DNA of 64,000 bases from a virus: IMG/VR virus record IMGVR_UViG_3300023296_001674. One strand, written 5' to 3'. Positions 1-58,426 of the stretch are shown piece by piece (the stretch's first letter is position 1; the number at the start of each line of letters is the position of its first letter). The position numbers and the translations under genes are program-made. The notes beneath the pieces were generated by a model. It made no database searches. It was not told the DNA's origin and saw only the letters and a list, made by a program, of their open reading frames with translations.

Positions 1-239
1 ATATTGGATAAGATAATAAATTCATTCAATGTTCTTGTTTGTGTGATATTGCAACACTTATTGCATCCAATGCTACGTATATGATCGGCTGCACGTTGTT
101 CAAATATACCATGATCGTCGCATATTATTTTTATTTTAGAATGTGAATGACTATATTCAACTAATGAATAATCATATACATCACCGTGAACGGCGATAGC
201 TTCTTGTATGAATTTAGTGGTGGTTTTTCTTCTTGACAT
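1..239 (-). CDS. homing-endonuclease-like protein, N-terminal part of a third paralog (gene runs off left edge)
   Basis: Minus-strand ATG at 239..237 translates MSRRKTTTKFIQEAIAVHGDVYDYSL..KIKIICDDHGIFEQ, near-identical to N-termini of CDS 6537..7271 and 11698..12435; 5' leader (241-330) also conserved with 12436-12530. Confidence 0.55.
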   Translation of the reverse strand, partial: MSRRKTTTKFIQEAIAVHGDVYDYSLVEYSHSHSKIKIICDDHGIFEQRAADHIRSIGCNKCCNITQTRTLNEFIILSN

Positions 240-408
240 GTGTTATCCTTCCGGGTTATAAATACGTGTGGCGGTTGGATTACCTTCCGGTGTCCAATGT
301 GATGAATGTTCGTAGCAAACATCACGCCGTCATTTTTATTTATCATTATTTCCTTGACATATAATATCAAACTGGTATTATAATAAAAACCACATAGGAG
401 ATTTAACA

Positions 409-618
409 ATGAAAAAGTTCTGGATTATTTTTAGCACTACGTCTGACCCAAGACGATGTTCGAAACCAACACGAGAGGCGAAAAAGCATTATGATAAAGA
501 AAAAGCCTTGACTGAGTTGAACAGACTTGCTAAACAAGAACGAGGCAGAGAATTTATTTTGTTGGAATCTATTTGTTCTGCTGTTGTAACAGATGTTGCA
601 ATCACGCCGCATACCTGA
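409..618 (+). CDS. hypothetical small early protein
   Basis: ORF track; TTGACA-N17-ATTATAAT promoter ~358-390; RBS taggag; stop overlaps next start (TGATG). Confidence 0.6.
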   Translation: MKKFWIIFSTTSDPRRCSKPTREAKKHYDKEKALTELNRLAKQERGREFILLESICSAVVTDVAITPHT

Positions 619-824
619 TGCAAATATTTTGGATCATATTTAACTTATCAGGCAATCCAGAACGGGAATCAAAACCCGCCTATAAGTTAAAGCAATACAC
701 CGATGAACAAAAAGCATTGGCAGAATTGGAACGCTTATCAAAGTTTTATACTGGACAAAAATATGTCCTAATGGAAACCGTTGGTTATGCCGACAAAGAT
801 GGAGTTAAAAATGCCAAAATCTAA
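618..824 (+). CDS. hypothetical small early protein, tandem paralog of 409..618
   Basis: Internal ATG of track ORF 573..824; shares FWIIF...KAL(T/A)EL(N/E)RL with upstream gene; translationally coupled. Confidence 0.55.
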   Translation: MQIFWIIFNLSGNPERESKPAYKLKQYTDEQKALAELERLSKFYTGQKYVLMETVGYADKDGVKNAKI

Positions 825-1344
825 AGGAATGATTCTACCTAACCCAAATCGTAAGGCTGGCGACTTGGTTGTATATGGCTTGATCCCCACCGATCTACCG
901 TCGTTGCGTGAACCTAATGGCGTTGGCTCTAAGGGTGGAAAATGCGCAGCGCATGGGCATCACGGGGGCGTTCAAATGCTTAAGTATGCCAATCATCCAG
1001 ACGTCCAAGCATACATCGAAGACGGTAATGCACATGGCGCGGATTACTTTAATACGTGTATCACACTTGATGCACATAGCAAACAGATTGATTCAATCAT
1101 CGAAACCGCACAGTTGTTGGGTTATGTTGCTGATAAAGTAACTGACCCAGAATATCCGTGGTTCGTTGATCGTGAGACTGCTAAGTGGATGGACACTGAT
1201 AACGTTCAGATCATTTGGGACGTCCAGAAAGGTAACACGGTTCTTGCTCTTCGTAAAGCAACGACGTTTGGTTGGTTGCTAGGCGACAAAGGTAATGATC
1301 CAATTTTTCGTGGGCTGGTTGGCGCACTTACATTAGCTGAATAG
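811..1344 (+). CDS. hypothetical protein
   Basis: Track ORF 781..1344 trimmed to ATG with GGAG RBS. Confidence 0.55.
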   Translation: MPKSKGMILPNPNRKAGDLVVYGLIPTDLPSLREPNGVGSKGGKCAAHGHHGGVQMLKYANHPDVQAYIEDGNAHGADYFNTCITLDAHSKQIDSIIETAQLLGYVADKVTDPEYPWFVDRETAKWMDTDNVQIIWDVQKGNTVLALRKATTFGWLLGDKGNDPIFRGLVGALTLAE

Positions 1345-1356
1345 AAAGGGCACATT

Positions 1357-1569
1357 ATGACACTTAATGAATGGTCAACCATCTGCACAATCAAACAAGA
1401 GCCTTCATACCGATTCGTCGGCAATGAAGGCGTTGTTGCTCTACGCATGGAACGTAAGTGTTGGCTGCGTGTCAAAGGCGACAAGACATATACCGTAACC
1501 CCATTGGGTGAAGGAATTTACACTGAAAACAAAGACACGTGGAACGACGAAAGTCGTTTCAAACTTTGA
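1357..1569 (+). CDS. hypothetical protein
   Basis: ORF track; RBS aaaggg. Confidence 0.55.
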   Translation: MTLNEWSTICTIKQEPSYRFVGNEGVVALRMERKCWLRVKGDKTYTVTPLGEGIYTENKDTWNDESRFKL

Positions 1570-1594
1570 ATACGCATACCAGAAGGAACGAGTA

Positions 1595-1795
1595 ATGAAT
1601 AAACAATATGAAGACGTCGACTTTGATACACTTAATAACGAATTTGCGAACGAACGAATAAGTGATTTTCCAGATGGATTAATCAAAGATACGACAATAG
1701 TCGTCGATCAGTATGGATTTAAAATAAAAAACCCAACATTAGAAATCGAAGAGGATGGATTCATAACTGTATTCCCACCAATCATAAAAGAATAA
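1595..1795 (+). CDS. hypothetical protein
   Basis: Track ORF 1508..1795 trimmed to ATG after aaggaacgag RBS; followed by bidirectional terminator. Confidence 0.5.
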   Translation: MNKQYEDVDFDTLNNEFANERISDFPDGLIKDTTIVVDQYGFKIKNPTLEIEEDGFITVFPPIIKE

Positions 1796-1797
1796 AA

Positions 1798-1843
1798 GAA
1801 AACCCATAGGTCTAATTCAATAGCACCTATGGGTTTTTCTATA
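1798..1843. terminator. bidirectional rho-independent terminator between convergent genes
   Basis: aaaacCCATAGGTctaattcaatagcACCTATGGGttttt; A-run one side, T-run other. Confidence 0.6.
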
Positions 1844-1852
1844 TGGGTTCTA

Positions 1853-2503
1853 TTAGAATGTCATGCAATTTTCTATGACTCGAAGTTGAACATTTCCTAA
1901 ACTGCGATGTCTGGTTTGTTTTAGGTTGAGTTTGAATTTAATATCATCACTTTCTTCTAAGACTTTAGCAAACAGTTCGGGTTGCATTGTTAATCCAATA
2001 TACAATAACCGCATAGTGCTTAATATCTTTCTTATTGGTTTGTCGAGTACAACTATTTCCTTGCCGGTAATAAGTGCGATAAACTTATCAAGGTTCATAC
2101 AACCACGCACTGAGTTGCATTCGGAACAAGCCATAGCAAAGTTATGCTTGAAATTAGAACCACCTTTTGTCCTTGCAACAACATGTTCAACCGTGGCGCG
2201 GTTAGTGTCGTGGTGTGGAATCGCATCACCGTCGTCCAGTTTTGGATACCACATTGGGTCACCACAATAGCAGCATCTATGATTTTGTGCTTCTAATAAT
2301 TTGATATTGCGGCGGCGGAGAAATCGAGTATTTCTACCGCGTTTATTTTTACGCGTATTTTCTTTAGTTTTTTCTACGTTGCCACCATTAGCCGCATCAT
2401 TCTCGAGACGTAGCGCACGCACTTCTTCGAGAGACATGCCTTTTTCTCGCTCACGTTTGTGTTTTCGTTTTTCGGTTCGTCTGAGTTTTCCTAATGGTGT
2501 CAT
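1853..2503 (-). CDS. HNH endonuclease with basic N-terminal region
   Basis: CxxC...HHDTNRATVEHVVARTKGGSNFKHNFAMACSECNSVRG = HNH motif. Confidence 0.75.
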   Translation of the reverse strand: MTPLGKLRRTEKRKHKREREKGMSLEEVRALRLENDAANGGNVEKTKENTRKNKRGRNTRFLRRRNIKLLEAQNHRCCYCGDPMWYPKLDDGDAIPHHDTNRATVEHVVARTKGGSNFKHNFAMACSECNSVRGCMNLDKFIALITGKEIVVLDKPIRKILSTMRLLYIGLTMQPELFAKVLEESDDIKFKLNLKQTRHRSLGNVQLRVIENCMTF

Positions 2504-2556
2504 TACAAATCCTTTCAGTGGGGATAGTATAGAACCATCCCCACTGATGTCAAGGG

Positions 2557-3096
2557 TTATCGCATTTGTTTATGAATCAGTGAACCACCGTTTGGCTTAC
2601 GCTTACACTTAGGGTGATATCGATTTTCTGCGTTTGCAAGTTTACGCTGTCTTGGTATCACTGTGCCACAATCTTTGCATGTATATGTATGCTTTGCGAC
2701 TTTCTTGCGTATTTCGTTAAGAATGGTAGATGAACCACATCGTTTAACGTTCGTTATTCCAAGATCAAACATTATTACACGCCATTCTCTACCATGTGCA
2801 GCAATCTTTCTGCCATTGATATAAGAACCAAATCGTTCTTTGACGAGTATGTGTGCTGTTTCATGTAGCAGTGTGTTAATAAAATCATCCATTTCTTCTG
2901 GTTTCACTGCACCATGCAAATAATATTCGCTGGTTACTTCGACCAGTTTCTTGGAATACTTACAGCAACCAAAGCGATTCTTTGCACGCCAATTGATTGC
3001 GAATTTCCATTGTTCTAATGCATCAAAATCATCACCAGCCGCGTTTCTAACACGATCTAATAAATCGAATTTTTCAAGATATGTAAGAAGTTTCAT
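2557..3096 (-). CDS. SprT-like zinc metallopeptidase-domain protein with C-terminal zinc ribbon
   Basis: LLHETAHILV (HExxH) ...HGREW; C-terminal CKDCG...HPKCK. Confidence 0.6.
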   Translation of the reverse strand: MKLLTYLEKFDLLDRVRNAAGDDFDALEQWKFAINWRAKNRFGCCKYSKKLVEVTSEYYLHGAVKPEEMDDFINTLLHETAHILVKERFGSYINGRKIAAHGREWRVIMFDLGITNVKRCGSSTILNEIRKKVAKHTYTCKDCGTVIPRQRKLANAENRYHPKCKRKPNGGSLIHKQMR

Positions 3097-3222
3097 GGTA
3101 GTTCCTTCCGTTTCAATAAGTGCATTAGATACTATAGTGTATATGATGTCAACACTTTATTTTCACTTGACACCATTGTGCAATCGTGTATAGTGATAAT
3201 CCAAACAACGAAAGGAACCGTT

Positions 3223-3414
3223 ATGTTATCAGAAGAAGAAAAACGTTTTATTGCATTTTGTGCCGAACTTGGCAAACTTTCCGTGAAACATGGCGTTACC
3301 ATTTATTCATGTGGTGGTGTTACTATTCACGACGTGCCATTATTAGAAGTGCTTTACATCGACGATGTATCAAGTGGTGATTTGGATTCAGTTATTGTAG
3401 AAAAGGAAATATAA
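3223..3414 (+). CDS. hypothetical protein
   Basis: Track ORF 3178..3414 trimmed; TTGACA-N17-TATAGT promoter ~3156-3184; RBS aaaggaa. Confidence 0.55.
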   Translation: MLSEEEKRFIAFCAELGKLSVKHGVTIYSCGGVTIHDVPLLEVLYIDDVSSGDLDSVIVEKEI

Positions 3415-3800
3415 TGCCAACACTAAACATATGGGAATTACCGGACAACACTGAAGTTGTTTATATCGACGTTGAAGGAAATCGTGTAACTGGTCGATTG
3501 GTAGAGAATTATGGTTCATATTTTGAATTCGTGCCAAAAGACGAAGATGCAAGTATGATGATTATGCATGACGTGGTTGATACCGTTGTTAAAGTCAGCG
3601 CAATAAAAACGGTTTCATTTGATTTTATCATGGATTCGTTTGTGTCTATACAGGCACCCGAAGGCACTGATCCTGATACATTGATTGAAAAAGCGATGAT
3701 TGCGTTTCATGATTTATTGGCTGCGAATCAAGCCGATGTCATATTTGATTCAACCATTCCAACATCTGAAAACACCGACCCATATGGAAACAAGTTATGA
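3414..3800 (+). CDS. hypothetical protein
   Basis: ORF track; start overlaps upstream stop (TAATG). Confidence 0.6.
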   Translation: MPTLNIWELPDNTEVVYIDVEGNRVTGRLVENYGSYFEFVPKDEDASMMIMHDVVDTVVKVSAIKTVSFDFIMDSFVSIQAPEGTDPDTLIEKAMIAFHDLLAANQADVIFDSTIPTSENTDPYGNKL

Positions 3801-4150
3801 AAATATTTGAACCCATCGAACAATTATTTGATGAAATGGAAGAGACCGGCATTAATATTGCACGCGCCGCAATAAGTGTCGAACTGAAAGCATTGAATGA
3901 AATGTTTCCGCGTCATACGTTCATGTATGAAGGACGACAATGTTTGGATTATGTCAAGGTTTCGCCGCCGTTGCTTGGTGAAGAAAAACTTGTACCTTGG
4001 ACATTTTCTGGTCCTAATTATTGGGATGGCAGGGCGAGTCAATTCCCCGCAATACAAAACATGGTGGAACACTTACAGCGGATTAATGATATCCATACCG
4101 AGTTGACTGTAATTACCCGCCGCAATACTGGTGTAGAAGAAGTTTTCTAA
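3797..4150 (+). CDS. hypothetical protein
   Basis: ORF track; ATGA overlap. Confidence 0.6.
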   Translation: MKIFEPIEQLFDEMEETGINIARAAISVELKALNEMFPRHTFMYEGRQCLDYVKVSPPLLGEEKLVPWTFSGPNYWDGRASQFPAIQNMVEHLQRINDIHTELTVITRRNTGVEEVF

Positions 4151-4159
4151 ACAAAGGGG

Positions 4160-4208
4160 TTGACATAGCCCCTTGACTTCCCTACTATACTGGTAGGGAG
4201 GGATGAGG
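4160..4208 (+). repeat. E-element copy 1 (sigma70-like promoter + TAGGGAGGGATGAGG box), plus orientation
   Basis: TTGACA-N17-TACTAT then ctggTAGGGAGGGATGAGG; one of 12 copies of this module. Confidence 0.6.
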
Positions 4209-4325
4209 TTTATTTGGCTGCGAAAAATAACTGCACCAAAATGAAATAAAGTATTGACACCTTCTATCCAACCTGTATAATACCCACAGATTGAACGAAA
4301 CGACTTACCCCGAAGGAACGAACAA

Positions 4326-4664
4326 ATGGCTGATTCAAATTTTGTAGCGAAGCGAGTAGATGCCGGTGTCCCAATATGGACAATATTTGCTTACGGTAGG
4401 GACATTGGTTCTGCTACGGTTTTCGATTGGGAAGACGAAGGCCCAATGGCAACTGTTCGTTATGGGTATGATGATTTACCAGTTACGTTTTCGGGTTCTT
4501 CTATACGCGATGTATTGGCTAAGGTTGGCGCATTTTTGCGCACCATTGATTCTGATATGGAAGGCGAAGCCGCCGCCGAGTATTATAGCGAAGTTACAGG
4601 ACCAATGGAAGCGGCGGAGCGTTTAGCAGAACGCGGGTATCGGGATGATGACCCTATTTGGTAA
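4326..4664 (+). CDS. hypothetical protein
   Basis: ORF track; TTGACA-N16-TATAAT ~4254-4282; RBS gaaggaa. Confidence 0.6.
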   Translation: MADSNFVAKRVDAGVPIWTIFAYGRDIGSATVFDWEDEGPMATVRYGYDDLPVTFSGSSIRDVLAKVGAFLRTIDSDMEGEAAAEYYSEVTGPMEAAERLAERGYRDDDPIW

Positions 4665-4727
4665 TAGGGGTTGACATTAGGAATTGGGTGGTCTATAACG
4701 CCCTGAACTTAACAAAGGAACAAACAA

Positions 4728-4952
4728 ATGTATAGCGTATATGATAGTTCGAGAGACCCGCGCATGGTAATACCCGAAGTTATGGCACGGACTGTATTCG
4801 ATAGTATTATCGGCGAGTGGAAAATTGCCAAGTTAAAGGGTGGCGAAACTGAACGACGGTTTAAAGTTAAAGAATCGGCGCAATTCGTATTCGATAAACT
4901 TGGCGGTTTTACTATTTGTTTTATTGAAGGCGACTTAATAATTAAGGGTTGA
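4728..4952 (+). CDS. hypothetical protein
   Basis: ORF track; promoter TTGACA..TATAAC ~4669-4697. Confidence 0.55.
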   Translation: MYSVYDSSRDPRMVIPEVMARTVFDSIIGEWKIAKLKGGETERRFKVKESAQFVFDKLGGFTICFIEGDLIIKG

Positions 4953-5002
4953 CTCGCCCAATCCAATAGGCTATACAATAGGTCAACCAACGGAGAGAGA
5001 TT

Positions 5003-6511
5003 ATGCAAATACCAGAAATCACACTTTCAACGCAGCAAGTTAATATTCTTGATTGGGTTAAATCAGGAAAAGGTAATGTCATTATCGAAGCTGTAGCTGG
5101 CAGTGGTAAGACCTTCACATTGGTTGAAGCCGTTAAGTTGATGGTAGGCACTGTATTCCTTGGTGCTTATAACTCTGCTATGGGTTATGAGTTGAAGGAA
5201 AAAACCAAGGGCATGAAAAATGTTCGGGCTGGCACGTTCCATAGTGCAGGCTTTGGCGCACTTCAATATCGTTACGGAAAAATGCAAGTTGATGCTAACA
5301 AAGTGCGAGATATCGTTAATGGTATGGCGGAGGGCGACGACTTGTTTGCTGTATACGGCAACTTCATTAACAAGATGGTAGCACTTGCCAAGGATTCCGG
5401 CATTGGGTTCTTTAATAAAATTAACGACCCTATCATGTGGAATGAACTTGTTGATAAGCACGACCTTATGGATCAACTCGACGAACACTTAACAGTTGAT
5501 GTTGGTATTCAGTTATCAATGGACGTCTTAAAGGCATCTAACTCTAATCTTAAAGTTATTGATTTTAGTGATATGATTTATCTTGTATTGTTAAACAACC
5601 TCCGCCTTTTCCAACAAGATTGGGTTTTGGTTGACGAAGCCCAAGATACCAATAGCACGCGACGCGCACTGGCAAAGAAAATGTTAAAACCCGGTGGGCG
5701 TTTGATCGCGGTTGGTGATCCTCGCCAAGCAATCTTTGGCTTCACTGGTGCTGATTCCGATGCGCTGGACTTGATCTCCAAGGACTTCGGTACAACGACG
5801 CTTCCTTTGACTAGCACGTTCCGTTGCCCTAAATCGGTTGTTAAACACGCCCAACAATGGGTATCACACATTGAAGCGTATGATACTAATATCGAAGGCG
5901 AAGTTATCAACGCTAAATTCGACGACGTGTTCGGTGAAAAATCCGAATATAAGTTTACCGGTTCCGATGCAATCATTTGCCGCCTTAACGCGCCTATCGT
6001 TGAACTTGCATTCAAGTTGATTCGTAAGGGTGTTCCTTGCCGCATTGAAGGTAGAGATATCGGCACACAACTTGCAGCACTTGCAAACAAGTGGAAAGTA
6101 GTCCGCCTTGACGCCTTACGCAATCGCCTTGAGAAGTATAAGGAACGTGAAGTATCTAAGGCTATGGCAAAAGGGCAAGAACAGAAAGCCGGTAGCATTA
6201 CTGACCGCGTGGGCTGCCTTAATGTTCTTATCGAACGCGCCGAAGAAAAGAAACTTGACGTTGCTGGTTTGATTGTAATGATCAAGGGCATGTTTTCAGA
6301 CGCCCAAGATAAAACCACAAATAAGAACATTTTGGTTTTATCATCCGTTCATAAATCAAAAGGTAAAGAATGGCCTAGAGTGTTCTTGTTAGGACGCCAA
6401 GAAAATATGCCAAGTCCTTTTGCTAGACAGACATGGCAACTTTTACAAGAGGATAACCTTATCTACGTTGCTGTAACGAGGGCGATGGAAACGTTAATCG
6501 AAGTGGATTAA
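5003..6511 (+). CDS. SF1 UvrD/PcrA-like DNA helicase
   Basis: AVAGSGKTFTL (Walker A), VDEAQDTN, GDPRQAIFGFTGA, TFRCP, VLSSVHKSKGKEWPRVFL. Confidence 0.8.
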   Translation: MQIPEITLSTQQVNILDWVKSGKGNVIIEAVAGSGKTFTLVEAVKLMVGTVFLGAYNSAMGYELKEKTKGMKNVRAGTFHSAGFGALQYRYGKMQVDANKVRDIVNGMAEGDDLFAVYGNFINKMVALAKDSGIGFFNKINDPIMWNELVDKHDLMDQLDEHLTVDVGIQLSMDVLKASNSNLKVIDFSDMIYLVLLNNLRLFQQDWVLVDEAQDTNSTRRALAKKMLKPGGRLIAVGDPRQAIFGFTGADSDALDLISKDFGTTTLPLTSTFRCPKSVVKHAQQWVSHIEAYDTNIEGEVINAKFDDVFGEKSEYKFTGSDAIICRLNAPIVELAFKLIRKGVPCRIEGRDIGTQLAALANKWKVVRLDALRNRLEKYKEREVSKAMAKGQEQKAGSITDRVGCLNVLIERAEEKKLDVAGLIVMIKGMFSDAQDKTTNKNILVLSSVHKSKGKEWPRVFLLGRQENMPSPFARQTWQLLQEDNLIYVAVTRAMETLIEVD

Positions 6512-6536
6512 CTATGGTTTTTTGATAAATACTTAT

Positions 6537-7271
6537 ATGGTAAAACGCAAAACAACAGAACAGTTTATACAAGAATCGACTGCAATTCATGGTGATGTAT
6601 ATGATTATTCATTGACCAATTATATCAATAGACGTACCAAAGTAAAAATAATATGCACCGTTCATGGTATATATGAACAAACTGCGGGAAATCATTTATA
6701 TCAAAAACAAGGTTGCTCAAAATGTGCCGGTGATAAACAGGCATCGAGACAGCGAAAATCACTATCACAGTTTATTCAAGAGGCAACAATAGTTCACGAT
6801 TCTTTATATGATTATTCGTTGGTGGATTACAATCATACTGATATAAAAGTAAAAATAATATGCCCAACGCATGATATATTTAAGCAAACGCCGCATGATC
6901 ATTTACATGGAAAAGGTTGCCCTAAATGCGTTCATACTATATCAAAAGGTGAAACTAACTGGCTTAATCGCATTGGTTTACCAGACGATACACAACATAG
7001 ACAAGTGCGCTTGCCTATGAATAATAATAAAAATCGAAGGGTTGATGGTTATGATCCATTAACCAATACTGTTTATGAATTTCATGGTGATTACTGGCAT
7101 GGCAACCCCGCACGTTTTAATCTCGATGATATAAACCCAACCATTAAAAAACCATACAGACAACTCTATGAAGCCACCTTAACCAAGGAAGTGCTTATCA
7201 AAGATTCCGGTTATAATCTTGTAGTTATGTGGGAGCATGATTGGAAAGCTCATCCCTCCCTAACAGTATAA
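6537..7271 (+). CDS. homing-endonuclease-like protein (tandem zinc-ribbon-like repeats + C-terminal EDxHD/Vsr-like nuclease motif)
   Basis: Two repeats KVKIICxxHGIFxQTPxxHLxGKGCxKC; C-terminus VDGYDPLTNTVYEFHGDYWHGNP; paralog of 11698..12435 and 1..239; start uncertain (track gives TTG 6522). Confidence 0.6.
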   Translation: MVKRKTTEQFIQESTAIHGDVYDYSLTNYINRRTKVKIICTVHGIYEQTAGNHLYQKQGCSKCAGDKQASRQRKSLSQFIQEATIVHDSLYDYSLVDYNHTDIKVKIICPTHDIFKQTPHDHLHGKGCPKCVHTISKGETNWLNRIGLPDDTQHRQVRLPMNNNKNRRVDGYDPLTNTVYEFHGDYWHGNPARFNLDDINPTIKKPYRQLYEATLTKEVLIKDSGYNLVVMWEHDWKAHPSLTV

Positions 7272-7404
7272 TATTAAATTACTCGTAAAAAAGCAATGAT
7301 TATTTTTATAATATGACGTAAATTACTTGTTGACATTGGTTCAGTTAGTTTGTAATATCTTTTTATCAGAACATCATACATTCACAAATGAAAGATTGAA
7401 AATA

Positions 7405-7824
7405 ATGCCAACATATCGAAAAAGAATACTCATATCAGAATTCGCTGAACCAGAAATATTTTTTGAATATAAAGGTGTGAAAATATATCATACTTATACA
7501 GACAATGCTGAAACACTTTCATCATTGAATTTTGACCGTGATTGTAAAAGCAAGCGGTTGTTTACCACGAACAAAAAATGCGGCATGGTTCCCATGTTTG
7601 ATGTTTATTTTGAAAACGATCTTCGTGTATGGGACAAACAATCAAAAAATGAAACCCGTGGGGTGTTTAACATTCAAAACATTCCAAATCCTAAAGGGCA
7701 TCATATTACGACTCATGCTGGTATTTCAAGAGTTCTTATGGAAGCAATTGACACCGGTTGGATTAAAACTAATAAAACACCAGAGTGTATTCACGATTGT
7801 CATATACTCGCACATCCAAAATAA
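7405..7824 (+). CDS. hypothetical protein (Cys/His-rich C-terminus)
   Basis: Track ORF trimmed; TTGACA-N17-TAATAT ~7330-7358. Confidence 0.5.
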   Translation: MPTYRKRILISEFAEPEIFFEYKGVKIYHTYTDNAETLSSLNFDRDCKSKRLFTTNKKCGMVPMFDVYFENDLRVWDKQSKNETRGVFNIQNIPNPKGHHITTHAGISRVLMEAIDTGWIKTNKTPECIHDCHILAHPK

Positions 7825-7913
7825 TCACATCAAGGGGAGAAGTAAAACCTTTTCCCCTTGACTAACTTTAATAAGTGTGCTATGAATATATCATAATTGA
7901 AAAGGATACGAAA

Positions 7914-8138
7914 ATGCATAACGCAGATGTTCTACATAATGCCTTACTTACCGCAACGATGATGATGCGTAAAGGTCGTGCGTTTAAGATTGTTAGATAT
8001 TCACCCAAACAAGAAACGGTTTATTATAGACCATTTTTCGCCAACGACCTGACTGACATACGCACTGACGAGTTGGATCACTTGTGCGACGATGATTCGA
8101 TTCAGTTATTCACCACAACGCAACTCGAAACACAATAA
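7914..8138 (+). CDS. hypothetical protein
   Basis: Track ORF trimmed to ATG after aaaaggatacgaaa. Confidence 0.5.
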   Translation: MHNADVLHNALLTATMMMRKGRAFKIVRYSPKQETVYYRPFFANDLTDIRTDELDHLCDDDSIQLFTTTQLETQ

Positions 8139-8147
8139 GGAAAACCG

Positions 8148-8345
8148 ATGCAAACTTATACCACCCCACGCTTAACGAACATAAGTGATACATTTCGCGC
8201 CGACGTTGCTGCGGGTGAATTAACTACATGGTGTGAAGAAAACAGTGTAGGTGCTTGGTTCATCCACGCCGTTGATCATGTGGAGTTTGAATTCCCCACA
8301 GATGCCAAACAATTTATGATGAAGTTTTGGGAGCTAGACTCCTAA
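8148..8345 (+). CDS. hypothetical protein
   Basis: ORF track; RBS aaggaaa. Confidence 0.55.
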   Translation: MQTYTTPRLTNISDTFRADVAAGELTTWCEENSVGAWFIHAVDHVEFEFPTDAKQFMMKFWELDS

Positions 8346-8426
8346 AAATCCCCCCGCATGTTCCTACGCAAGTAATGAAGACACTCCATGCGGGGGTTCT
8401 TTTTGTTTTGGCGCACCCAAAAAAAG

Positions 8427-8473
8427 CTCATCCCTCCCTATCAGCATAATAGCAGGGTCAATAGATAAGTCAA
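8427..8473 (-). repeat. E-element copy 2, minus orientation
   Basis: plus strand reads aaaaaaaGCTCATCCCTCCCTATCAG..CATAAT..N17..AGTCAA; i.e. minus-strand TTGACT-N17-ATTATG-ctgaTAGGGAGGGATGAGC-T7; ~90% identical to copy at 18201. Confidence 0.6.
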
Positions 8474-8550
8474 CCATTATTATTAAAAATAAACCATTGA
8501 CAACGGCTTTTGTATTTTATATAATATATAGATTGAAAAGGAGAATTGAA

Positions 8551-8958
8551 ATGTCGCGCACTTATCGTAAGCTTCCTTATTGGTCAAATGATCCAAAATT
8601 AACACGTGAGCGAGGCTCCAAATGGACTGGCATGCGTGTTTTTGTTGCTCCTAATGGAAATGTATTCGGTTGGGATGATGAAGCCCTACGTAAAAAATCA
8701 TCTAAACGTCGCACCAATCGCATTCGCCGTTTGATGGGCAAGAAAGAAATTGTTCTTGCCGTTGCTGCTATGGCAGAAGACGCAATGGAAGACCTCAACG
8801 AAATGATGGATTGGGAAGCCGAAGAGTATTGCGATACATATTACGACGAGTATGAATTGTCTGAATGGGCTGATTGGAAACAGCGTGAAATTGATGATCA
8901 AGCAATTGAAGAATATTATTTAAATGAAGACCCATATTATTACGATTTTGATTATTAA
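8551..8958 (+). CDS. hypothetical protein with acidic/aromatic C-terminus
   Basis: Track ORF trimmed; TTGACA-N18-TATAAT ~8494-8525; RBS aaaggag. Confidence 0.55.
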   Translation: MSRTYRKLPYWSNDPKLTRERGSKWTGMRVFVAPNGNVFGWDDEALRKKSSKRRTNRIRRLMGKKEIVLAVAAMAEDAMEDLNEMMDWEAEEYCDTYYDEYELSEWADWKQREIDDQAIEEYYLNEDPYYYDFDY

Positions 8959-9035
8959 GGGTTGACATCACTATTTGATTTCGTTATGATTCATCCAAGC
9001 TAACAACACAACATAAATCTTGAAAGGATTTAACT

Positions 9036-9293
9036 ATGGCTAATAAATTCACAATCACACGCACTTATGATCGCGATGAAATTATTGACACAGTTAATAA
9101 ATCCATTGAACAAAACGGAACATATCATCAAATCAAATCGTTGCTTGATACTTTATATACTGGATGGTTTTTTGATATAGAAACGGCTTGCGAAGTTGAA
9201 TTGATTTTACGCGAAAAGGGCGATTTTATTCGCGAGTTTTATCAAGAACGGCTAGACGAAATGAATGCTGCCAAGAAATTTGACTTGGTATAA
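9036..9293 (+). CDS. hypothetical protein
   Basis: ORF track; leader aacaacacaacataaatcttgaaaggatttaac repeated at 9308-9342. Confidence 0.55.
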   Translation: MANKFTITRTYDRDEIIDTVNKSIEQNGTYHQIKSLLDTLYTGWFFDIETACEVELILREKGDFIREFYQERLDEMNAAKKFDLV

Positions 9294-9342
9294 CTATTCA
9301 CTTAAGATAACAACACAACATAAATCTTGAAAGGATTTAACA

Positions 9343-9672
9343 ATGTCTAAAACAATTTCCCGCGTAGACTTCATTGAACTTATGGCAGATGCTGCAATGC
9401 GACTTCCAGTAACACGCAAGCGCAAGCCAGAGGATGACCCATCTGAATTCATCGACTTGTTTGATTATGATGCAATGTCAAACGAATGGTCGAAAGGTGT
9501 TCAGTGGCTTCGTGGCGTTGGTGATAGTGGCACTTATAAAGTTCCGACACCCGATGGAACATTCAAGCGCGTTCCAATGCGAACTATTGCTGAAATGCCA
9601 GCGTTCATTCAAGAGATTGTTACCGAGGCACAAACTCATTTGAATATCGATTCGATTGTCGAGATCGCTTAA
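9343..9672 (+). CDS. hypothetical protein
   Basis: ORF track; duplicated leader. Confidence 0.55.
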   Translation: MSKTISRVDFIELMADAAMRLPVTRKRKPEDDPSEFIDLFDYDAMSNEWSKGVQWLRGVGDSGTYKVPTPDGTFKRVPMRTIAEMPAFIQEIVTEAQTHLNIDSIVEIA

Positions 9673-9723
9673 CTAATCTTTAATCATTCGGTGCGATACT
9701 TCTTTATGAAAGGAGTATCGCAC

Positions 9724-9879
9724 ATGATTGATTTTTTATTATACTATTCACTTGGTGGGGTTGTTTGGTGTGTATGGACTGAAGTTCTACACCGGAAAGG
9801 ATTCTTAGCCAGACTAGGGTTGATTGTATTCATCCCTTTTGTTGCAATCACTTTAATGTTGGAATCAATACGAAATTAG
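9724..9879 (+). CDS. small membrane protein
   Basis: Track ORF trimmed to ATG after aaaggag; hydrophobic. Confidence 0.45.
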   Translation: MIDFLLYYSLGGVVWCVWTEVLHRKGFLARLGLIVFIPFVAITLMLESIRN

Positions 9880-9951
9880 TTATTGACTCTTTTATTAAAA
9901 AATGGTACACTTAGTTATACACTTATTATTAACATTTGAAAAGGAATTGTA

Positions 9952-10452
9952 ATGAGACGTTCATTAAAATTAGTATTAGCCTCGATGTTGATCGTGGCGC
10001 TATCCGGTTGTGTTACACAAGGGAGTGGCGGCGGCGTTGGCACTAAAGGTTTGCTTGGCGGTCTTCTAGGGGCTGGCGTTGGCGGATATGCCGGTTCAAA
10101 TATCGGCGGTGGTAAAGGCAAACTTGCTGCTACTGCAATCGGCGTTCTTGCTGGTGCATGGCTTGGAAATAACGTTGGAAACACGCTTGACGACGTTGAT
10201 CGGTTGAAATCGCAAAAGGTAACACAACGCGCACTTGAACGAAATCCGCAAGGTTCTCCAGCGGTTTGGTCGAACCCCACCAATCGAACCTCGGGAACCA
10301 CGACACCGACTCGAACGTATAAGTCACGAAATAATGAAGATTGTCGAACATATAAACAATCAATAGTTATCAATGATAAAATTGAAACAAAACATGGAAC
10401 TGCATGTAGAATAAATGGGCTTTGGGTAGAACAACAACCGCCCGGCTCATAA
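9952..10452 (+). CDS. outer-membrane lipoprotein with glycine-zipper domain (SlyB/17-kDa-antigen-like)
   Basis: Signal peptide + lipobox LSGC; GGLLGAGVGGYAGSNIGGG..AIGVLAGAWLGNNVG. Confidence 0.6.
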   Translation: MRRSLKLVLASMLIVALSGCVTQGSGGGVGTKGLLGGLLGAGVGGYAGSNIGGGKGKLAATAIGVLAGAWLGNNVGNTLDDVDRLKSQKVTQRALERNPQGSPAVWSNPTNRTSGTTTPTRTYKSRNNEDCRTYKQSIVINDKIETKHGTACRINGLWVEQQPPGS

Positions 10453-10577
10453 TATTAAAGATAAAACCAATCTTTTTTTCTATCATCTTTTAAATATTTA
10501 ATAGTTGACAAACTGAAATAATTTGGTATAGTTAAATCATCAACAAACACAAACAACGAAAGAAGAGGCTTAAGACG

Positions 10578-10775
10578 ATGGGTAAAACATTTTCGCGTGA
10601 TCCAGATAGTGACAATTATGCAGGTGGACATATGAAGGCAAATCGCCAAGAAACAAAATTCCGCCGACAAAAATCGGTTCGGAAAGATGCATTGCTAGAC
10701 GAAAGCATGCAACCTGATGAACCAACTTATGGCAAACACACGGATGATTTTAGCCCACGGAAAGACGGCTGGTAA
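10578..10775 (+). CDS. hypothetical basic protein
   Basis: ORF track; TTGACA-N17-TATAGT ~10505-10533; terminator 10781-10812. Confidence 0.55.
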   Translation: MGKTFSRDPDSDNYAGGHMKANRQETKFRRQKSVRKDALLDESMQPDEPTYGKHTDDFSPRKDGW

Positions 10776-10941
10776 TCAATTAAAAAGGGAAGCAGAAATG
10801 CTTCCCTTTTTTTATGCTTGACACTGGTTTAGTTAATTGCTATGTTAAATCGTCGTTGCCCAAGAAAGCGGGTTGATAAAGACTTGACTGACACTACGAA
10901 GTGTTCTATTGATTAATCATAACAACAAAAAGGAACCGAGT

Positions 10942-11301
10942 ATGACTACAGCAGAAGTAATCCCTTTCGCCGTTCTTAAAGCCAAGATCGATGACCGTGA
11001 CATTACACCAGAAGCAATTGAAGAAGCATCGTTTTCACCCGAGGTTGAAGCTGATGTTTTGACAAATTTGCTGGTATCCGGTTTATACAAAGGCATGACG
11101 AATTCTGGCATTGACACCCTTTCGGATGTAAATCAAGAATTACTTGGTGTTATATATGAAATGGTTGGCGCGGTTGTTGATCGCAAATATAAATTGTTTA
11201 ATGAATTCAATGCAATACGTGATATTCAAGCCGAAAAGGGCGATGTTCAACTTGAAACAAATGTTTTTCTAAAACCAAAACAGGAGACAACTGATGCCTA
11301 A
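10942..11301 (+). CDS. hypothetical protein
   Basis: Track ORF trimmed; promoter TTGACA..TATGTT ~10815-10843; RBS aaaaagga. Confidence 0.5.
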   Translation: MTTAEVIPFAVLKAKIDDRDITPEAIEEASFSPEVEADVLTNLLVSGLYKGMTNSGIDTLSDVNQELLGVIYEMVGAVVDRKYKLFNEFNAIRDIQAEKGDVQLETNVFLKPKQETTDA

Positions 11302-11704
11302 AGCCGTAACGCAATATGAAACATTCGACGGAAAAGTATTCTCCGACGAAAATGCCGCTGAACAATGGGAACGCAATACAAATAAAGCAAACGCAATCAT
11401 ATCGATGTTTCCGAACAACGGTCATCTTTCATCTGGCGATTTCTATCAGTTATCAAGAGATTTGATTAGCACCGCGAGAATTAAACTTGCCGATGCTTTA
11501 ACTCGTGGCGGCTTCGATGACGAAATGATTAAAGCATTTCGTGATAATACCAGCGATGTAATCGGACGCTATCTCGACGACGGCGGTTCAACATATTATA
11601 AAGCATGGTGGTTATTTTCTTGTATTGACAATCAAGGGCGGATGTTCAATCAACCGTTCTTTGCCAATAATCCAAGAGAAATAAGAGATGAAGTTTCCTA
11701 TTGA
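11294..11704 (+). CDS. hypothetical protein
   Basis: ORF track; overlaps upstream by 8 nt. Confidence 0.55.
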   Translation: MPKAVTQYETFDGKVFSDENAAEQWERNTNKANAIISMFPNNGHLSSGDFYQLSRDLISTARIKLADALTRGGFDDEMIKAFRDNTSDVIGRYLDDGGSTYYKAWWLFSCIDNQGRMFNQPFFANNPREIRDEVSY

Positions 11705-12435
11705 TTCTTCCAATCATTTTCCCATATCGTGACAAGATTATAGCCGTGAGATTTAATAAGAGTCTCACGGTTCATAGTCTTTTGATATAACTCGCCGAAT
11801 GATTTTTTATTATTGGTGTTGATATGTTCGGGATTGTGTGTATTAGGATTCCCATGCCAATAATCACCATAGAACTCATATATGGTATTTGTGTCAGGGT
11901 CATAACCGTCTGGATATATCCATTGATTATTTAATATTAAAGTTCGTCGCCTATAATCATTTGTATCAGGTAATCCAATATGATCAAGCCACGATTTTTC
12001 CATATATGATTTATTCTGTATAGTTAATGGTCGCAACATAATGGCGCACTTATTACATCCATGATTTAAATGTGCTGATGGTTCTTGTTGAAATATTCCA
12101 TGTTCAGGGCAAATGATATTCACCTTTGTATGCGTGTTATGATAATCAACTAATGAATAATTATATTTATCGCCATGTTTTATCAACGATTTTTGTATAA
12201 ATTTTAATGTAGTTCCCCGTATTTTATCTGAATTATTTTTTATTGCACATTTAATACAGCCTTTTCCACTACTAGTGTGCGAACAAGGCGTCTGTTCAAA
12301 TATTCCATGAGTTGTGCATATTATTTTAACTTTGGTATGGGCGGCAATATATATAGACAATGAATAGTCATATCTATCACCATGAATGGCGATAGCATCT
12401 TGAATGAATTTTGAGGTAGTTTTTCTTCTTGACAT
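11698..12435 (-). CDS. homing-endonuclease-like protein (paralog of 6537..7271)
   Basis: MSRRKTTSKFIQDAIAIHGDRYDYSL..KVKIICTTHGIFEQTP..GKGCIKCA, second repeat, C-terminus YEFYGDYWHGNP. Confidence 0.65.
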   Translation of the reverse strand: MSRRKTTSKFIQDAIAIHGDRYDYSLSIYIAAHTKVKIICTTHGIFEQTPCSHTSSGKGCIKCAIKNNSDKIRGTTLKFIQKSLIKHGDKYNYSLVDYHNTHTKVNIICPEHGIFQQEPSAHLNHGCNKCAIMLRPLTIQNKSYMEKSWLDHIGLPDTNDYRRRTLILNNQWIYPDGYDPDTNTIYEFYGDYWHGNPNTHNPEHINTNNKKSFGELYQKTMNRETLIKSHGYNLVTIWENDWKNQ

Positions 12436-12616
12436 GTGATATCCTTCCGGTTATAAATACATTGGCGGTAGGACTTACCTTCCGGTGTCCATGTGATACA
12501 TACTTGAAATATGTATCACACCGCTCCTATCTATTTATCTTTTTTATTATTAAAACCCTTGACAATGATGGATGTTTGCTTTATATCTAAATCAACTTTA
12601 ATGAAAAGGAATTATT

Positions 12617-13462
12617 ATGAAACTCATAGCGATTAATGCAGATATCACCACGTTGGAAGTTGATTGTATCGTAAATGCATCTAATCCAGCACTAATGCAT
12701 GGCGGTGGGGTATGCGGTGCAATATTTGAAGCCAGTGGCGCAAATGAACTTGCGGGATTTATTGCGCAGAACTATGGGCTAGGATGCTTAACAGGGCAAG
12801 TAGTTGTGACTCCGGGGTTCAACCTACCGGCGAAGTTCATCTTGCACACTGTCGGGCCTGATATGCGCCTATATGCACAAGAAGCGGGTGATACATTGTT
12901 GCAGTTATGTTATATCAACTGTATTGAGGCGGCATTCGATGAAGGGTTGACTTCTATTGCCTTCCCTGCTATCAGTACTGGAATCTTTGGATTTGATAAA
13001 AAACGTGCTGCTACGATTGCAGTTACTACATTGATGGACTACAGTGGTAGCGAAGATATCGAAATTACCTTTGCTTGCTTTGGCGATGAAGATACCGCAA
13101 TAGTTCAAGCCGCGATTGATGATGAAGATGCATCACGGCATTATCTATCATGGTCAATGTATAATGAACAATACGATATTGATTCGGCGGCTGGAAAGTG
13201 TGACATTGAAGGCGATTGGGAAGTGTTATACGCTGACTTATCTACGGATGTTCCTACTGGCATTTACATGGTATCAACAACCTATGATGGCAACCTCGGT
13301 GTAGCGAAAGGCGTTGTTATCAATGATGGTGTATTCGATATCGACCAAACCCTACGCGCTTGTGCGGTTGCCCGTAACAATGCAGGATATTGGGGAACTT
13401 TTCTTGAAGGATTGGATTGGAATAGCGAAACCGAAGAATTTACAGCACACTTCGGTTCTTAA
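12617..13462 (+). CDS. macro-domain (ADP-ribose-binding/processing) protein with unknown C-terminal domain
   Basis: VDCIVNASNPALMHGGGVCGAIFEASG macro signature; promoter TTGACA-N17-TTATAT ~12557-12586. Confidence 0.7.
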   Translation: MKLIAINADITTLEVDCIVNASNPALMHGGGVCGAIFEASGANELAGFIAQNYGLGCLTGQVVVTPGFNLPAKFILHTVGPDMRLYAQEAGDTLLQLCYINCIEAAFDEGLTSIAFPAISTGIFGFDKKRAATIAVTTLMDYSGSEDIEITFACFGDEDTAIVQAAIDDEDASRHYLSWSMYNEQYDIDSAAGKCDIEGDWEVLYADLSTDVPTGIYMVSTTYDGNLGVAKGVVINDGVFDIDQTLRACAVARNNAGYWGTFLEGLDWNSETEEFTAHFGS

Positions 13463-26201: not shown

Positions 26202-26292
26202 CACTTAATTTATTTTTATTTAGGGGGTTGACTCATCTGATGCCTACCTTTATAACTACAAATAGAAACCAACCACATAAGGAATTGCCCAC

Positions 26293-26595
26293 ATGAAAAA
26301 CACTTACATAAACGCAGTATTCTTTAATGTATCTAACGAAAACGGTTTGGATACGTTTGCCGATAAGGTCCAGAAAGCATTGGATTGCGAATTGTTTTAT
26401 TATGAAAATGGTAGGGAAATAGGCGTGGTTACGTGTGGCGGTTCCCCATCTGGCAAGGATTACCAGTTTGGCATGGGTGGTGGCAACTTTGATTTGGATC
26501 ATAACGTGGTGCTATATTCCGAACCCGCTACCGTGTTCGTTATGTTCGATGACGCTAGTGGTAGCAGGTGCGTTCAGCCAGTAAGCCACCGATAA
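26293..26595 (+). CDS. hypothetical protein
   Basis: ORF track; G4 promoter cassette catttagggggTTGACTcatctgatgcctaccttTATAAC ~26215-26252 (duplicated at 26716). Confidence 0.55.
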   Translation: MKNTYINAVFFNVSNENGLDTFADKVQKALDCELFYYENGREIGVVTCGGSPSGKDYQFGMGGGNFDLDHNVVLYSEPATVFVMFDDASGSRCVQPVSHR

Positions 26596-26677: not shown

Positions 26678-26790
26678 GATTTTATCATCAAAATTTATTT
26701 TAATAATAGTGCATTTAGGGGGTTGACTCATCTGATGCCTACCTTTATAACTACAAATAGAAACCAACCACAACCCCGAAGGAACTTATC

Positions 26791-36870: not shown

Positions 36871-37327
36871 TTATATCTCCTATGTTTTTTATAGTATATA
36901 GGATAATTGATCATTGTCAAGGGAATAGTGGATTACGGTTTTGGGCGGACTGATTTTACATTGTGGGGAAATTATGGTTCACTTATCGGGTTTATAAGTG
37001 AAAAGGTTTCCACAGTAGAAGCATGCGGTTACGTTTCTTTTATGAAGGGGGATTGTATAGTATACGATGGGGTGATTATGCGGGGGATTTGGTCCTGCGC
37101 ACTTAACATTTGGTGTATTTGTGTAGATTATTTTGGGATTATGTGTCATAAGTGTATTTATTATGGGGTATTATGGGGTATAAGCGCTCAAAAAATTTGC
37201 TTAAAGCCTACGGCTTTTTATGATTTCGTTGTTTAATTGTTGAAGGGCGGCGGCGTAAAACACCGATTGTTACTGTTGATCTATTGTGTCATTACTAAAT
37301 AACATCGTATTTAACAGGAGAAGTAGT

Positions 37328-39152: not shown

Positions 39153-39536
39153 ATGAAAAAATTATTATTAGCGGCAACACTTATGGTATTGCCATTTACT
39201 GCGATGGCAGAAGAACAAACAGTTGGAATGTCTGCTACATTTATGTGTAGAGTGGCATCAACAGTAGACGCGCATTTAACTAGATTGGGTTATACCAAAG
39301 GTGTTGAACTTGATGGATTAAATATGGGAACCATTATTATATGGTACGGAACAGAAAACGGCATCAAATCTTGGATGCTTACTGCGAATACACCCAATGG
39401 TTTAACTTGCAAATTAGATAATGGTTATGTTGATCTCAAAAACCCAACCGAAACTACTCCTGAATCGTCAAAACCAAAACTGGATGAAGAATCATTAAAG
39501 AAAATGATGGACAACGCGAAAAAAGACTCACTTTAA
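39153..39536 (+). CDS. secreted protein
   Basis: Signal peptide MKKLLLAATLMVLPFTAMA. Confidence 0.55.
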   Translation: MKKLLLAATLMVLPFTAMAEEQTVGMSATFMCRVASTVDAHLTRLGYTKGVELDGLNMGTIIIWYGTENGIKSWMLTANTPNGLTCKLDNGYVDLKNPTETTPESSKPKLDEESLKKMMDNAKKDSL

Positions 39537-40207
39537 CATTTGATTATATAAATATAATTTGGAAAATTGACCGACTTCAATCTCCTTCTTACAGTTTCTT
39601 CGCCGAGTTTTAATATTTTTGCCGACTCGATGACTGATGAATATATAACGTCGTCTATTTTAACAGATTTTTTGCGATGATTATTTTCTGGATGTTTTCC
39701 ATATAACGGATGTTTATCACCGATTTTTCCATACATGCCATTTTTTTCACCAGAATTTTTTTCACTTATTTTTTGTTTAGTTTCATCTGTTCTTGGCACA
39801 CCGAATAATGGATTATTTTTTCCAGTTCTGCCCCACATTGGATTATTTTTTCCTTTCATTTTCTCTGCAAATTTAGGTCTTTTAACACCTGTTCTGTTGG
39901 GTGGTCTTCTATCAACGCAAATATTAGTAAGTATGCCATTTTTGTCATAACCATTTCGACCAAGTTTTTTAATCCACGTTTTTTCTAAATCATATGCATC
40001 CTTTTCTGGCATATTTTTTTCTATGAATTTAACACCAGGTTCTAATCCTTCTTTTCGTATCGCATTTATTTTATTCCATTTTTGTATATTTTCTGTTGTG
40101 TGTATAGTTTCCGTCAGATGTCTCTTCCATCGGTCTTTTGATCCTTTTCCTATATAAAATTCTATATTATCATGTCTTGGGTCTAGCAATGCGTATACGT
40201 AATACAT
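39533..40207 (-). CDS. GIY-YIG homing endonuclease with NUMOD3-type repeats
   Basis: MYYVYALLDPR..FYIGKGSKDRWKRH; repeated GKNNPMWG/KNNPLFG/KHPLYG motifs. Confidence 0.75.
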   Translation of the reverse strand: MYYVYALLDPRHDNIEFYIGKGSKDRWKRHLTETIHTTENIQKWNKINAIRKEGLEPGVKFIEKNMPEKDAYDLEKTWIKKLGRNGYDKNGILTNICVDRRPPNRTGVKRPKFAEKMKGKNNPMWGRTGKNNPLFGVPRTDETKQKISEKNSGEKNGMYGKIGDKHPLYGKHPENNHRKKSVKIDDVIYSSVIESAKILKLGEETVRRRLKSVNFPNYIYIIKC

Positions 40208-40288
40208 GTATATCCTTATTCGTTATATGTTTTATCCCATCATATATTTATAATAAATATTAATAATGTATAAAATAAGGAATATATC

Positions 40289-41556: not shown

Positions 41557-41844
41557 GTGCAATATGTCAAGATGTTTATTATTGACTTATGGACGGTGTT
41601 TTTATATAATGATATTATGAGATATTTACATGTAGAAGCACATAGTGGTCGTCCATATTGGATTGTGATTGAAGAAAAAAACAAAGATAATCATTGGGGT
41701 CAAATGTTGAATATAGGAATGAGTGTTTGGTTGTGTGAAAATATATCAACATCGGGCGATGATTGGTGTTTTTTAGACACTAACAATGCAGTTAGTTTTT
41801 TAAATCTTGATGATGCGATGGCATTCATTTTGCGATGGGCATAA
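41557..41844 (+). CDS. hypothetical protein with C-terminal ..DDAMAFILRWA motif
   Basis: ORF track; TTGACT-N17-TATAAT ~41505-41533. Confidence 0.5.
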   Translation: MQYVKMFIIDLWTVFLYNDIMRYLHVEAHSGRPYWIVIEEKNKDNHWGQMLNIGMSVWLCENISTSGDDWCFLDTNNAVSFLNLDDAMAFILRWA

Positions 41845-42098
41845 ATATAGATATGATAACTGTTAAATTATGCGATCACGGAATAAATGTTACCATGCAT
41901 CAAGATGCCGAATTTATTGAAACTGAAAAGGGTATATGGTTAGAGGATAATAACATCGATTATCGCATTTGTTCTATTGTTAATATCTTGGCTATGAATA
42001 TAGACGGTAAGACAATTGATGCGATATCTATTGAAAATATGTCATTTTTTAGCGAAGAAGACTTTATGGCATTTAAATTGCGATGGAGCAATCAATAA
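41835..42098 (+). CDS. hypothetical protein with C-terminal ..EEDFMAFKLRWSNQ motif (paralog)
   Basis: ORF track. Confidence 0.5.
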   Translation: MGINIDMITVKLCDHGINVTMHQDAEFIETEKGIWLEDNNIDYRICSIVNILAMNIDGKTIDAISIENMSFFSEEDFMAFKLRWSNQ

Positions 42099-58394: not shown

Positions 58395-58426
58395 TGATAA
58401 ATACCTTTACATAAAGAGGTTTCATA

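Follow-up and report, generated by a model that had tools for sequence, protein, structure and literature searches.

Vsr-like homing endonuclease genes of a huge phage, their late-promoter-like upstream box and the conserved leader of the antisense copies

Nucleases of the EDxHD family, which was defined in 2011 with the phage Hef-type endonucleases included, carry an extra conserved acid at the position of Phe62 in Vsr (PMC3239194). Proteins that combine several domains of ~60 amino acids (aa) related to CapR, DUF4379 and DUF723 with an EDxHD/Vsr-like domain of ~100 aa were described in 2025 as a large, unrecognised outgroup with thousands of members (PMC12350094). Three genes of this type, termed copies A, B and C, are located in a stretch of viral DNA of 64,000 nucleotides (nt) from the IMG/VR record IMGVR_UViG_3300023296_001674; this whole stretch is referred to as the window. 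The best joint explanation, to which we give a probability of roughly 0.7, is that A, B and C are diverged, free-standing, Vsr-like homing endonuclease genes that occupy three intergenic sites and are expressed from modules driven by a late-promoter-like box.

The closest described systems each share part of this design. The I-Bth0305I/EDxHD family has the same Vsr-like type of catalytic domain (PMC3239194). However, the DNA-binding part of copies A to C is built of zinc-finger repeats instead of NUMOD/helix-turn-helix elements, the genes are free-standing and not located in an intron, and the last acid (E233) follows the His by 45 residues, compared with 9 residues in I-Bth0305I. The outgroup exhibits the same architecture, in agreement with the Pfam matches and the family size found here, but its members contain three to five repeats and are intron-encoded, whereas the present genes encode two repeats and are intergenic (PMC12350094). 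The T5orf172 homing endonucleases of ICP1 and other phages carry the same repeated CapR/DUF723 zinc fingers and show evidence of domain shuffling between paralogs, as in A to C; their nuclease domain, however, is T5orf172/GIY-YIG-like and not Vsr-like (PMC10448857). The HGCFWH motif in Vsr, an endonuclease for very-short-patch repair, aligns with HGxxWH of the three copies, but the biology of Vsr differs (mismatch nicking) and the zinc-finger repeats are absent from it.

For expression, the nearest comparison is the T4 family, in which homing endonuclease genes use late promoters together with RNA structures at their start sites (PMC3014915). The genes for I-TevI, I-TevII/III, Aeh1 mobE and T4 segB likewise have a late-promoter-type box upstream and a leader RNA structure. 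In the T4 family, the hairpin sequesters the ribosome site on read-through transcripts, whereas here this site is predicted to be open. The structure described here is also located at the predicted 5´ end of the transcript, and the sense-oriented copies lack a leader altogether. All that is new is the short, conserved leader with a predicted fold that precedes copies A and C.

Gene copies, protein architecture and insertion sites

The three genes were found at the positions given by the first-pass annotation, and tblastn of the whole window with B and C as queries yielded no further family member:
1-239, minus strand: copy A, first 79 codons, comprising repeat 1 and the beginning of repeat 2; the remainder lies past the window edge
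6537-7271, plus strand: copy B, 244 aa, starting 25 nt after the stop codon of a UvrD-like helicase gene (5003-6511)
11698-12435, minus strand: copy C, 245 aa, antisense to its neighbours

The complete copy A encodes 244 aa and is located at 9097-9831 (minus strand) on the source contig, L136 (window coordinate = L136 coordinate - 9592). Copy C overlaps by 7 nt with the stop of the convergent 136-aa gene (11294-11704). The source contig is metagenomic, has a length of ~570 kilobases (kb) and carries T4-like rIIA/rIIB genes, which indicates a huge phage. Several diverged homing endonuclease copies are typical of the genomes of such phages. No tRNA gene was detected in the window or in L136. By megablast, 13 kb of the sequence had no match among 50,697 phage records, and related phage contigs were reached through proteins only, with homologs of the neighbouring Macro-domain protein leading to syntenic contigs. 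Relatives of the Macro gene were not found in IMG/VR.

The proteins are 54% (A/C), 53% (B/C) and 55% (A/B) identical. Nucleotide similarity is local: A and C share 79% identity over 257 nt, which cover the leader and the first ~140 nt of the coding sequence (CDS), and 75% identity was observed over 135 nt for A/B and over 123 nt for B/C. The description of the genes as nucleotide-level paralogs thus applies to these local tracts and not beyond them, and a recent transposition, which had also been suggested, is not supported because the copies are too diverged. Copy A is of mosaic composition, with a 5´ end like that of C, while its nuclease domain is 64% identical to that of B, 71% to that of the related phage protein P0091 and 53% to that of C.

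Each copy contains two repeats of ~65 aa, which are built as a helix, then a β-hairpin and then a zinc knuckle. The zinc ligands, arranged as CxxH...CxxC (C40, H43, C60 and C63 in the first repeat; C109, H112, C128 and C131 in the second), are invariant across 47 sequences. In Pfam, DUF723 matches copy B above its cut-off (22.8 bits against 20.9), DUF4379, a treble clef, gives weaker, sub-cut-off matches in both complete copies (B and C), and CapR gives a weak sub-cut-off match in copy B only. PF05265 is precomputed for essentially all homologs. The sequences therefore support an assignment of the repeats as zinc-binding, DNA-binding modules, as their earlier description as zinc-ribbon-like implied.

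The C-terminal ~110 aa carry the motif VDGYDPxTNTxYEFxGDYWHGNP...WExDW. In the AlphaFold model of copy B, which has a predicted local distance difference test score (pLDDT) of 94.3, the best structural match of this domain is Vsr, at an identity of only 14-19%. This model supports a Vsr/EDxHD-type PD-(D/E)xK fold. Asp170, Gly184 and His188 are invariant in both the full-length and the domain alignments, Glu233 shows no variation in the domain alignment and very little in the full-length one, and Glu181 is nearly invariant in both. With respect to the composite EDxHD motif (Vsr E25, D51, x H64, H69 and D97), the x position is His/Tyr183, and the Glu of SKxE is common but not invariant. Glu181 occupies by motif alignment the position of the extra acid described for Vsr Phe62; these catalytic assignments derive from the motif alignment (HGDYWH with Vsr HGCFWH) and the description in PMC3239194, not from residue-level superposition. 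All catalytic residues and zinc ligands are intact in A, B and C, so neither a non-nuclease fold nor a loss of catalytic acids, the outcomes that would have spoken against a nuclease, was observed. Searches of the PDB by sequence gave no match with phmmer (single protein) or with two profiles, including none to 3r3p, and the Vsr-like Pfam families matched weakly (MTES_1575 in 8/20 members, RAP in 5/20), which is consistent with the status of a distant outgroup in PMC12350094.

At E<=1e-10, 3392 homologous proteins were found; 656 phage records matched as well, many of them annotated as homing or Hef-like endonucleases. By architecture, A, B and C are members of the Hef-type/EDxHD-Vsr homing endonuclease family, which has thousands of members. 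The gene had been called unusual; because the family is very large and already described (PMC3239194, PMC12350094), this does not hold.

Presence and absence among related genomes were observed at two of the sites. The C site extends from the stop codon of the 136-aa gene to the -35 box of the Macro promoter. An endonuclease gene fills it in the window and in L015, where the protein is 68% identical and the gene has the same orientation and the same leader. The site is empty in L145, in which the stop codon of the upstream gene lies inside the Macro -35 box, and in L142 an unrelated 113-aa gene takes the place of the endonuclease gene. L143 has no endonuclease gene before the Macro gene, but it also lacks the 136-aa gene and is thus not a clean empty site. 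At the B site, 25-38 nt after the UvrD-like helicase stop codon, an endonuclease gene is present in the window, L225, L226 and L229, and the site is empty in L142 and L143. Copies B and C thus combine an intergenic position beside conserved genes with presence or absence among relatives. An intergenic location next to conserved genes is typical of free-standing homing endonuclease genes, and the pattern supports the mobility that the first-pass annotation proposed, with the gene-free alleles that it suggested looking for now found in L145 (C site) and in L142 and L143 (B site). By analogy with the family, each enzyme would cut, close to its own insertion point, the allele that lacks the gene in a co-infecting relative, and the endonuclease gene would then be copied into the cut allele through recombinational repair.

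Other putative mobile genes are present in the window. An HNH endonuclease gene with its own sigma-70-like promoter (1853-2503, minus strand) and a SprT-like gene (2557-3096, minus strand) are both antisense to the surrounding plus-strand genes, which suggests that another probable mobile insertion lies near copy A. A homing endonuclease gene of an unrelated kind (39533-40207, minus strand; PHROG 314, E 1e-21) is antisense to part of its surroundings, and a perfect T4-late-type TATAAATA is located at 40245-40252, 37 nt before its ATG.

Upstream box and gene orientation

The sequence GATAAATA or a variant of it precedes the gene in 8/8 family loci of this phage clade. T4 late promoters consist of an 8-bp box at about -13 to -6, of which the first position may vary (PMC2988020), and GATAAATA differs from the T4 late promoter by one mismatch at this variable position. 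In late promoters of the T4 type, the box lies about one helical turn ahead of the start site and is recognised by a gp55-type factor; by its motif, the present box is a candidate promoter of this type. The five sense copies (B, L225, L226 with a variant box, L227 and L229) share one arrangement, in which a T-run is followed by the box, exactly 5 nt and the start codon; a Shine-Dalgarno site and a structured module are both absent. The three antisense copies (A, C and L015) all carry a structured module, with ~90 nt between the box and the ATG. Across the eight loci, the correspondence between gene orientation and type of upstream signal has no exception. The box of copy B is as follows:
6524-6531, plus strand: GATAAATA exactly 5 nt before the ATG, with a T-run upstream; no Shine-Dalgarno site and no structured core

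Given the position of the T4 box at about -13 to -6, transcription of the sense genes would start at their own start codon, and that of the antisense genes 1-2 nt before a GCGG stem. All copies of the clade would be transcribed from the GATAAATA box. In the sense copies, such as B, the start codon is placed where box-driven transcription should begin, which suggests leaderless late messenger RNAs (mRNAs). Such an mRNA would be translated only if it were made from the box promoter. In the antisense copies A and C, the predicted transcript begins 1-2 nt before a GC-closed structure of two hairpins, which is followed by an exposed Shine-Dalgarno site. Most simply, their leader would be a self-contained module composed of a promoter, a 5´-terminal stabilising or regulatory structure and a ribosome site.

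A sigma-70-type promoter for A or C was sought and not found: the conserved TGTCAAG upstream is the reverse complement of the -35 box of the divergent neighbour. Its distance to the GATAAATA box is variable, and it marks the edge of the cassette. A and C have no sigma-70-like promoter of their own, and GATAAATA is their only conserved promoter candidate. The signals on the opposite strand are the following:
354-381, plus strand: TTGACA-N17-TATTAT, a sigma-70-like promoter that serves the divergent gene 409-618; cassette A has its outer edge at the -35 box
12559-12587, plus strand: TTGACA-N17-TATATC, a sigma-70-like promoter that serves the Macro-domain gene 12617-13462; the end of cassette C is immediately ahead of the -35 box
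11742-11772, plus strand: strong terminator-like hairpin that lies within the 3´ end of copy C and follows the 136-aa gene downstream

An analogous strong plus-strand GC hairpin with a T-run is present in copy A at about 9110-9150 of L136, where it reads GCCCCATCAGCATCCAGCGGTGGGG and then TTTTGTTTTT.

The arrangement of the sense copies was also observed elsewhere. ATAAATA, exactly 5 nt and the ATG of an open reading frame (ORF) of 56-164 codons, with no Shine-Dalgarno site, occur before two small ORFs of the window (37147-37161, minus strand; 41841-41855, plus strand) and before non-endonuclease genes in L142 (position 665) and L143 (position 1613). These cases suggest that leaderless late transcripts may be used more widely in the phage clade.

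The leader of the antisense copies and its possible roles

The leader shared by the two minus-strand copies is ~105 nt long, not ~80 as first estimated, and is ~85% identical between A and C. The same leader precedes the gene in L015, a related phage, and copy B has no such leader. Its elements are located as follows:
240-344, minus strand: leader A, with the GATAAATA box at 337-344 and the predicted +1 at 331
327-329 with 272-274, minus strand: CGG/CCG closing stem of leader A, with hairpin P2 at 299-325 and hairpin P3 at 277-295
283-290 and 247-254, minus strand: CCGGAAGG box 1 (in P3) and CCGGAAGG box 2 (the Shine-Dalgarno site) of leader A
257-264: inverted box TATTTATA of leader A; the plus strand reads TATAAATA
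12436-12539, minus strand: leader C, with the GATAAATA box at 12532-12539 and the predicted +1 at 12526
12521-12524 with 12465-12468, minus strand: GCGG/CCGC stem of leader C, with P2 at 12493-12519 and P3 at 12471-12490
12478-12485 and 12443-12450, minus strand: CCGGAAGG box 1 (in P3) and CCGGAAGG box 2 (the Shine-Dalgarno site) of leader C
12452-12459: inverted box TATTTATA of leader C; the plus strand reads TATAAATA

In order, the leader comprises GATAAATA, 5 nt, (G)CGG and the GTGAT...ATCAC hairpin, followed by the hairpin GGACA-CC-GGAA-GG-(U)AA-(G)UCC, CCGC, TATTTATAA, CCGGAAGGA with the Shine-Dalgarno site, and the ATG. The duplicated box that had been noted in it stands out from chance, as CCGGAAGG occurs 4 times in the window against 0.58 expected, and 0/100 shuffles reach 4. 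The GTGAT...ATCAC hairpin (P2), also noted before, is present in both leaders; its upper part differs among A, C and L015 yet stays paired, with 3 compensatory pairs. Leader C folds better than shuffled sequences (z = -4.45), and leader A does so weakly (z = -1.39). The leader is ~85% conserved, compared with ~54% identity of the proteins. A ribosome-site-sequestering hairpin of the T4 kind was looked for and is not predicted; in the predictions, the Shine-Dalgarno site is largely unpaired (P 0.44-0.71), and the T4-style model does not apply.

Further copies of the leader were sought. Rfam 15 gave no match on the leaders at E<=5. A covariance model found no further copy among 79 IMG/VR loci that encode relatives of the family and, with filters off, only the three known leaders (A, C and L015) in the related-phage loci. 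The exact leader 16-mer had 10 matches in IMG/VR, all by chance, and the duplicated-box pattern had at least 120, all by chance and mostly in GC-rich coding DNA; a 23-base leader pattern had 3 chance matches in the JGI metagenomes. The leaders in strain variants of the same phage (L011-L014, L137 and L138) are identical and add nothing. On these sequence comparisons, the leader is a real, lineage-specific expression module, of which we infer the mechanism.

Tentatively, we propose that promoter geometry, and not a sequestering hairpin, gates the endonuclease genes in time. For the sense copies, read-through transcripts would be silent and only the leaderless late transcript would be translatable. 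The antisense copies would carry a portable module of ~90 nt with three possible roles. It may give the endonuclease mRNA a ribosome site and a structured 5´ end, it may re-drive the interrupted neighbour gene through the outward, perfect TATAAATA, and it may include a terminator-like hairpin within the 3´ end of the gene. The plus-strand TATAAATA and the terminator-like hairpins fit a module that would make an antisense insertion tolerable. As a joint claim, this account is doubtful. Several observations weigh against the late-promoter reading and the RNA fold of the main explanation. KATAAATA is not enriched in the window (15 observed, 16.9 expected), and ATAAATA-N5-ATG is enriched only marginally (3 against 0.89; 4/100 shuffles). 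The sense copy L225 starts with GTG, which is poor for leaderless translation. The covariation in the three leader sequences is not significant, since 130/500 shuffles reach it, and the 7-base-pair A/U stem that the two boxes form is just as compatible with a pair of convergent promoters.

This last reading holds that GATAAATA would drive the endonuclease gene and TATAAATA, on the other strand, the neighbour, in place of an RNA stem. The overlap of the two transcripts would measure about 62 nt and coincide exactly with the structured core, and the module would either restore late transcription of the gene downstream or damp the endonuclease by antisense pairing or promoter collision. In A, C and L015, the 3´ arm has as its complement a perfect TATAAATA directed towards the neighbour, so the A/U stem may indeed be two convergent promoters. 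The GCGG/CCGC stem has a predicted start, one per strand, at each of its ends, the module is present only in the three antisense insertions, and the plus-strand terminator-like hairpins within the 3´ ends of A and C would stop upstream transcription from reaching the neighbours. However, the neighbours already have sigma-70-like promoters of their own, the GGAA tetraloop is on the sense strand, and the G-U pairs of P2 become A-C on the other strand. We consider convergent promoters an unlikely explanation, albeit the strongest of the alternatives. The autoregulation that the first-pass annotation proposed would require that the endonuclease bind the leader, as an operator or as an RNA site, in analogy to the autorepression of I-TevI and to the CapR repressor: the two zinc-finger repeats would recognise the two CCGGAAGG boxes, which are spaced 34-36 nt from each other. 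Two identical direct boxes do stand opposite two DNA-binding repeats, the first 26 residues are nearly identical in A and C, and the repeats have a relative, CapR, that acts as a transcriptional repressor (PMC10448857). In addition, GUCCUACC pairs with the Shine-Dalgarno site in the minimum-energy fold of C when folding begins at the predicted +1, but the site is mostly unpaired in the ensembles. The boxes are identical, yet A and C share only 62% and 46% identity in their repeats, and the protein of L015 contains three of them. Because identical boxes precede genes with differing DNA-binding repeats, autoregulation is not favoured. P2 varies in sequence but remains paired, as would be expected of a folded strand more than of a duplex operator, and we regard this alternative as improbable.

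The similarity of the leaders might instead reflect only a gene conversion between A and C that covered the leader and the first ~140 nt of the CDS, in which case the predicted fold would be functionless. The high-identity tract is continuous from the leader into the CDS, copy A has the mosaic composition described above, with a C-like 5´ end and a nuclease domain closer to those of B and P0091, and the non-significant covariation is in line with this view. However, the same leader precedes the gene of a different phage, L015, in which the CDS start is more diverged, invariant leader blocks alternate with a hairpin top that differs in the three copies yet remains paired, and the fold of leader C exceeds that of its shuffles by a wide z-score. 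The odds are thus rather long for conversion as the whole explanation. Least probable of all, and only slightly credible, is that the genes are no longer selfish and have been domesticated as nucleases or regulators, for example for the exclusion of competing phages or for gene control. A B-type gene has long been at the same helicase-proximal site in four diverged phages (57-61% identical), and relatives of the DNA-binding repeat have been co-opted before (PMC10448857). Against this stand the presence/absence polymorphism at both the B and C sites, the intact catalytic residues and zinc ligands in all three copies, and the intergenic placement beside conserved genes.

Genome features and meaning for the family

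On the plus strand from 350 to 34000, nearly every small gene has its own TTGAC[AT]-N17-TATAAC/T promoter, 55-65 nt before the ATG, and the spacers are often near-identical, e.g. CTGGTTCAGTTAGTT; together they form an array of about 40 single-gene early transcription units. An identical 29-nt promoter, TTGACTCATCTGATGCCTACCTTTATAAC, is present at 26228-26256 and 26723-26751, before genes that start at 26293 and 26791, about 500 nt apart, which points to a local tandem duplication. The GC content is about 40% in 1-34 kb, compared with 33-36% from 34 kb onward. Among the later genes, a carbamoyltransferase gene (58427-60076; Nol-like, PHROG 1601, E 2e-99) has TTTTGATAAATA at 58396-58403, 23 nt before its ATG, and is followed by an ATP-dependent DNA ligase-like gene (60076-61098). 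Outside the window, 3´ of copy A, ~1.8 kb of the source contig (L136 7288-9096) contain no called gene, with 23-51 stops per frame and a GC content of 41.7%. No tRNA, no Rfam match and no similarity to any phage record was found in this segment, which could be a large non-coding RNA or a decayed region in an otherwise densely coding genome.

As proteins, A, B and C are additions to a very large and already described family. The occupied and empty alleles define concrete cleavage substrates for an uncharacterised branch of Vsr-like homing endonucleases. The rule that links orientation to upstream signal leads to a simple, testable model, in which the endonuclease genes would be quiet until late infection and an antisense insertion would be harmless to the neighbours. 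If true, gating by promoter geometry would be a new way for a selfish gene to limit its cost to the host.

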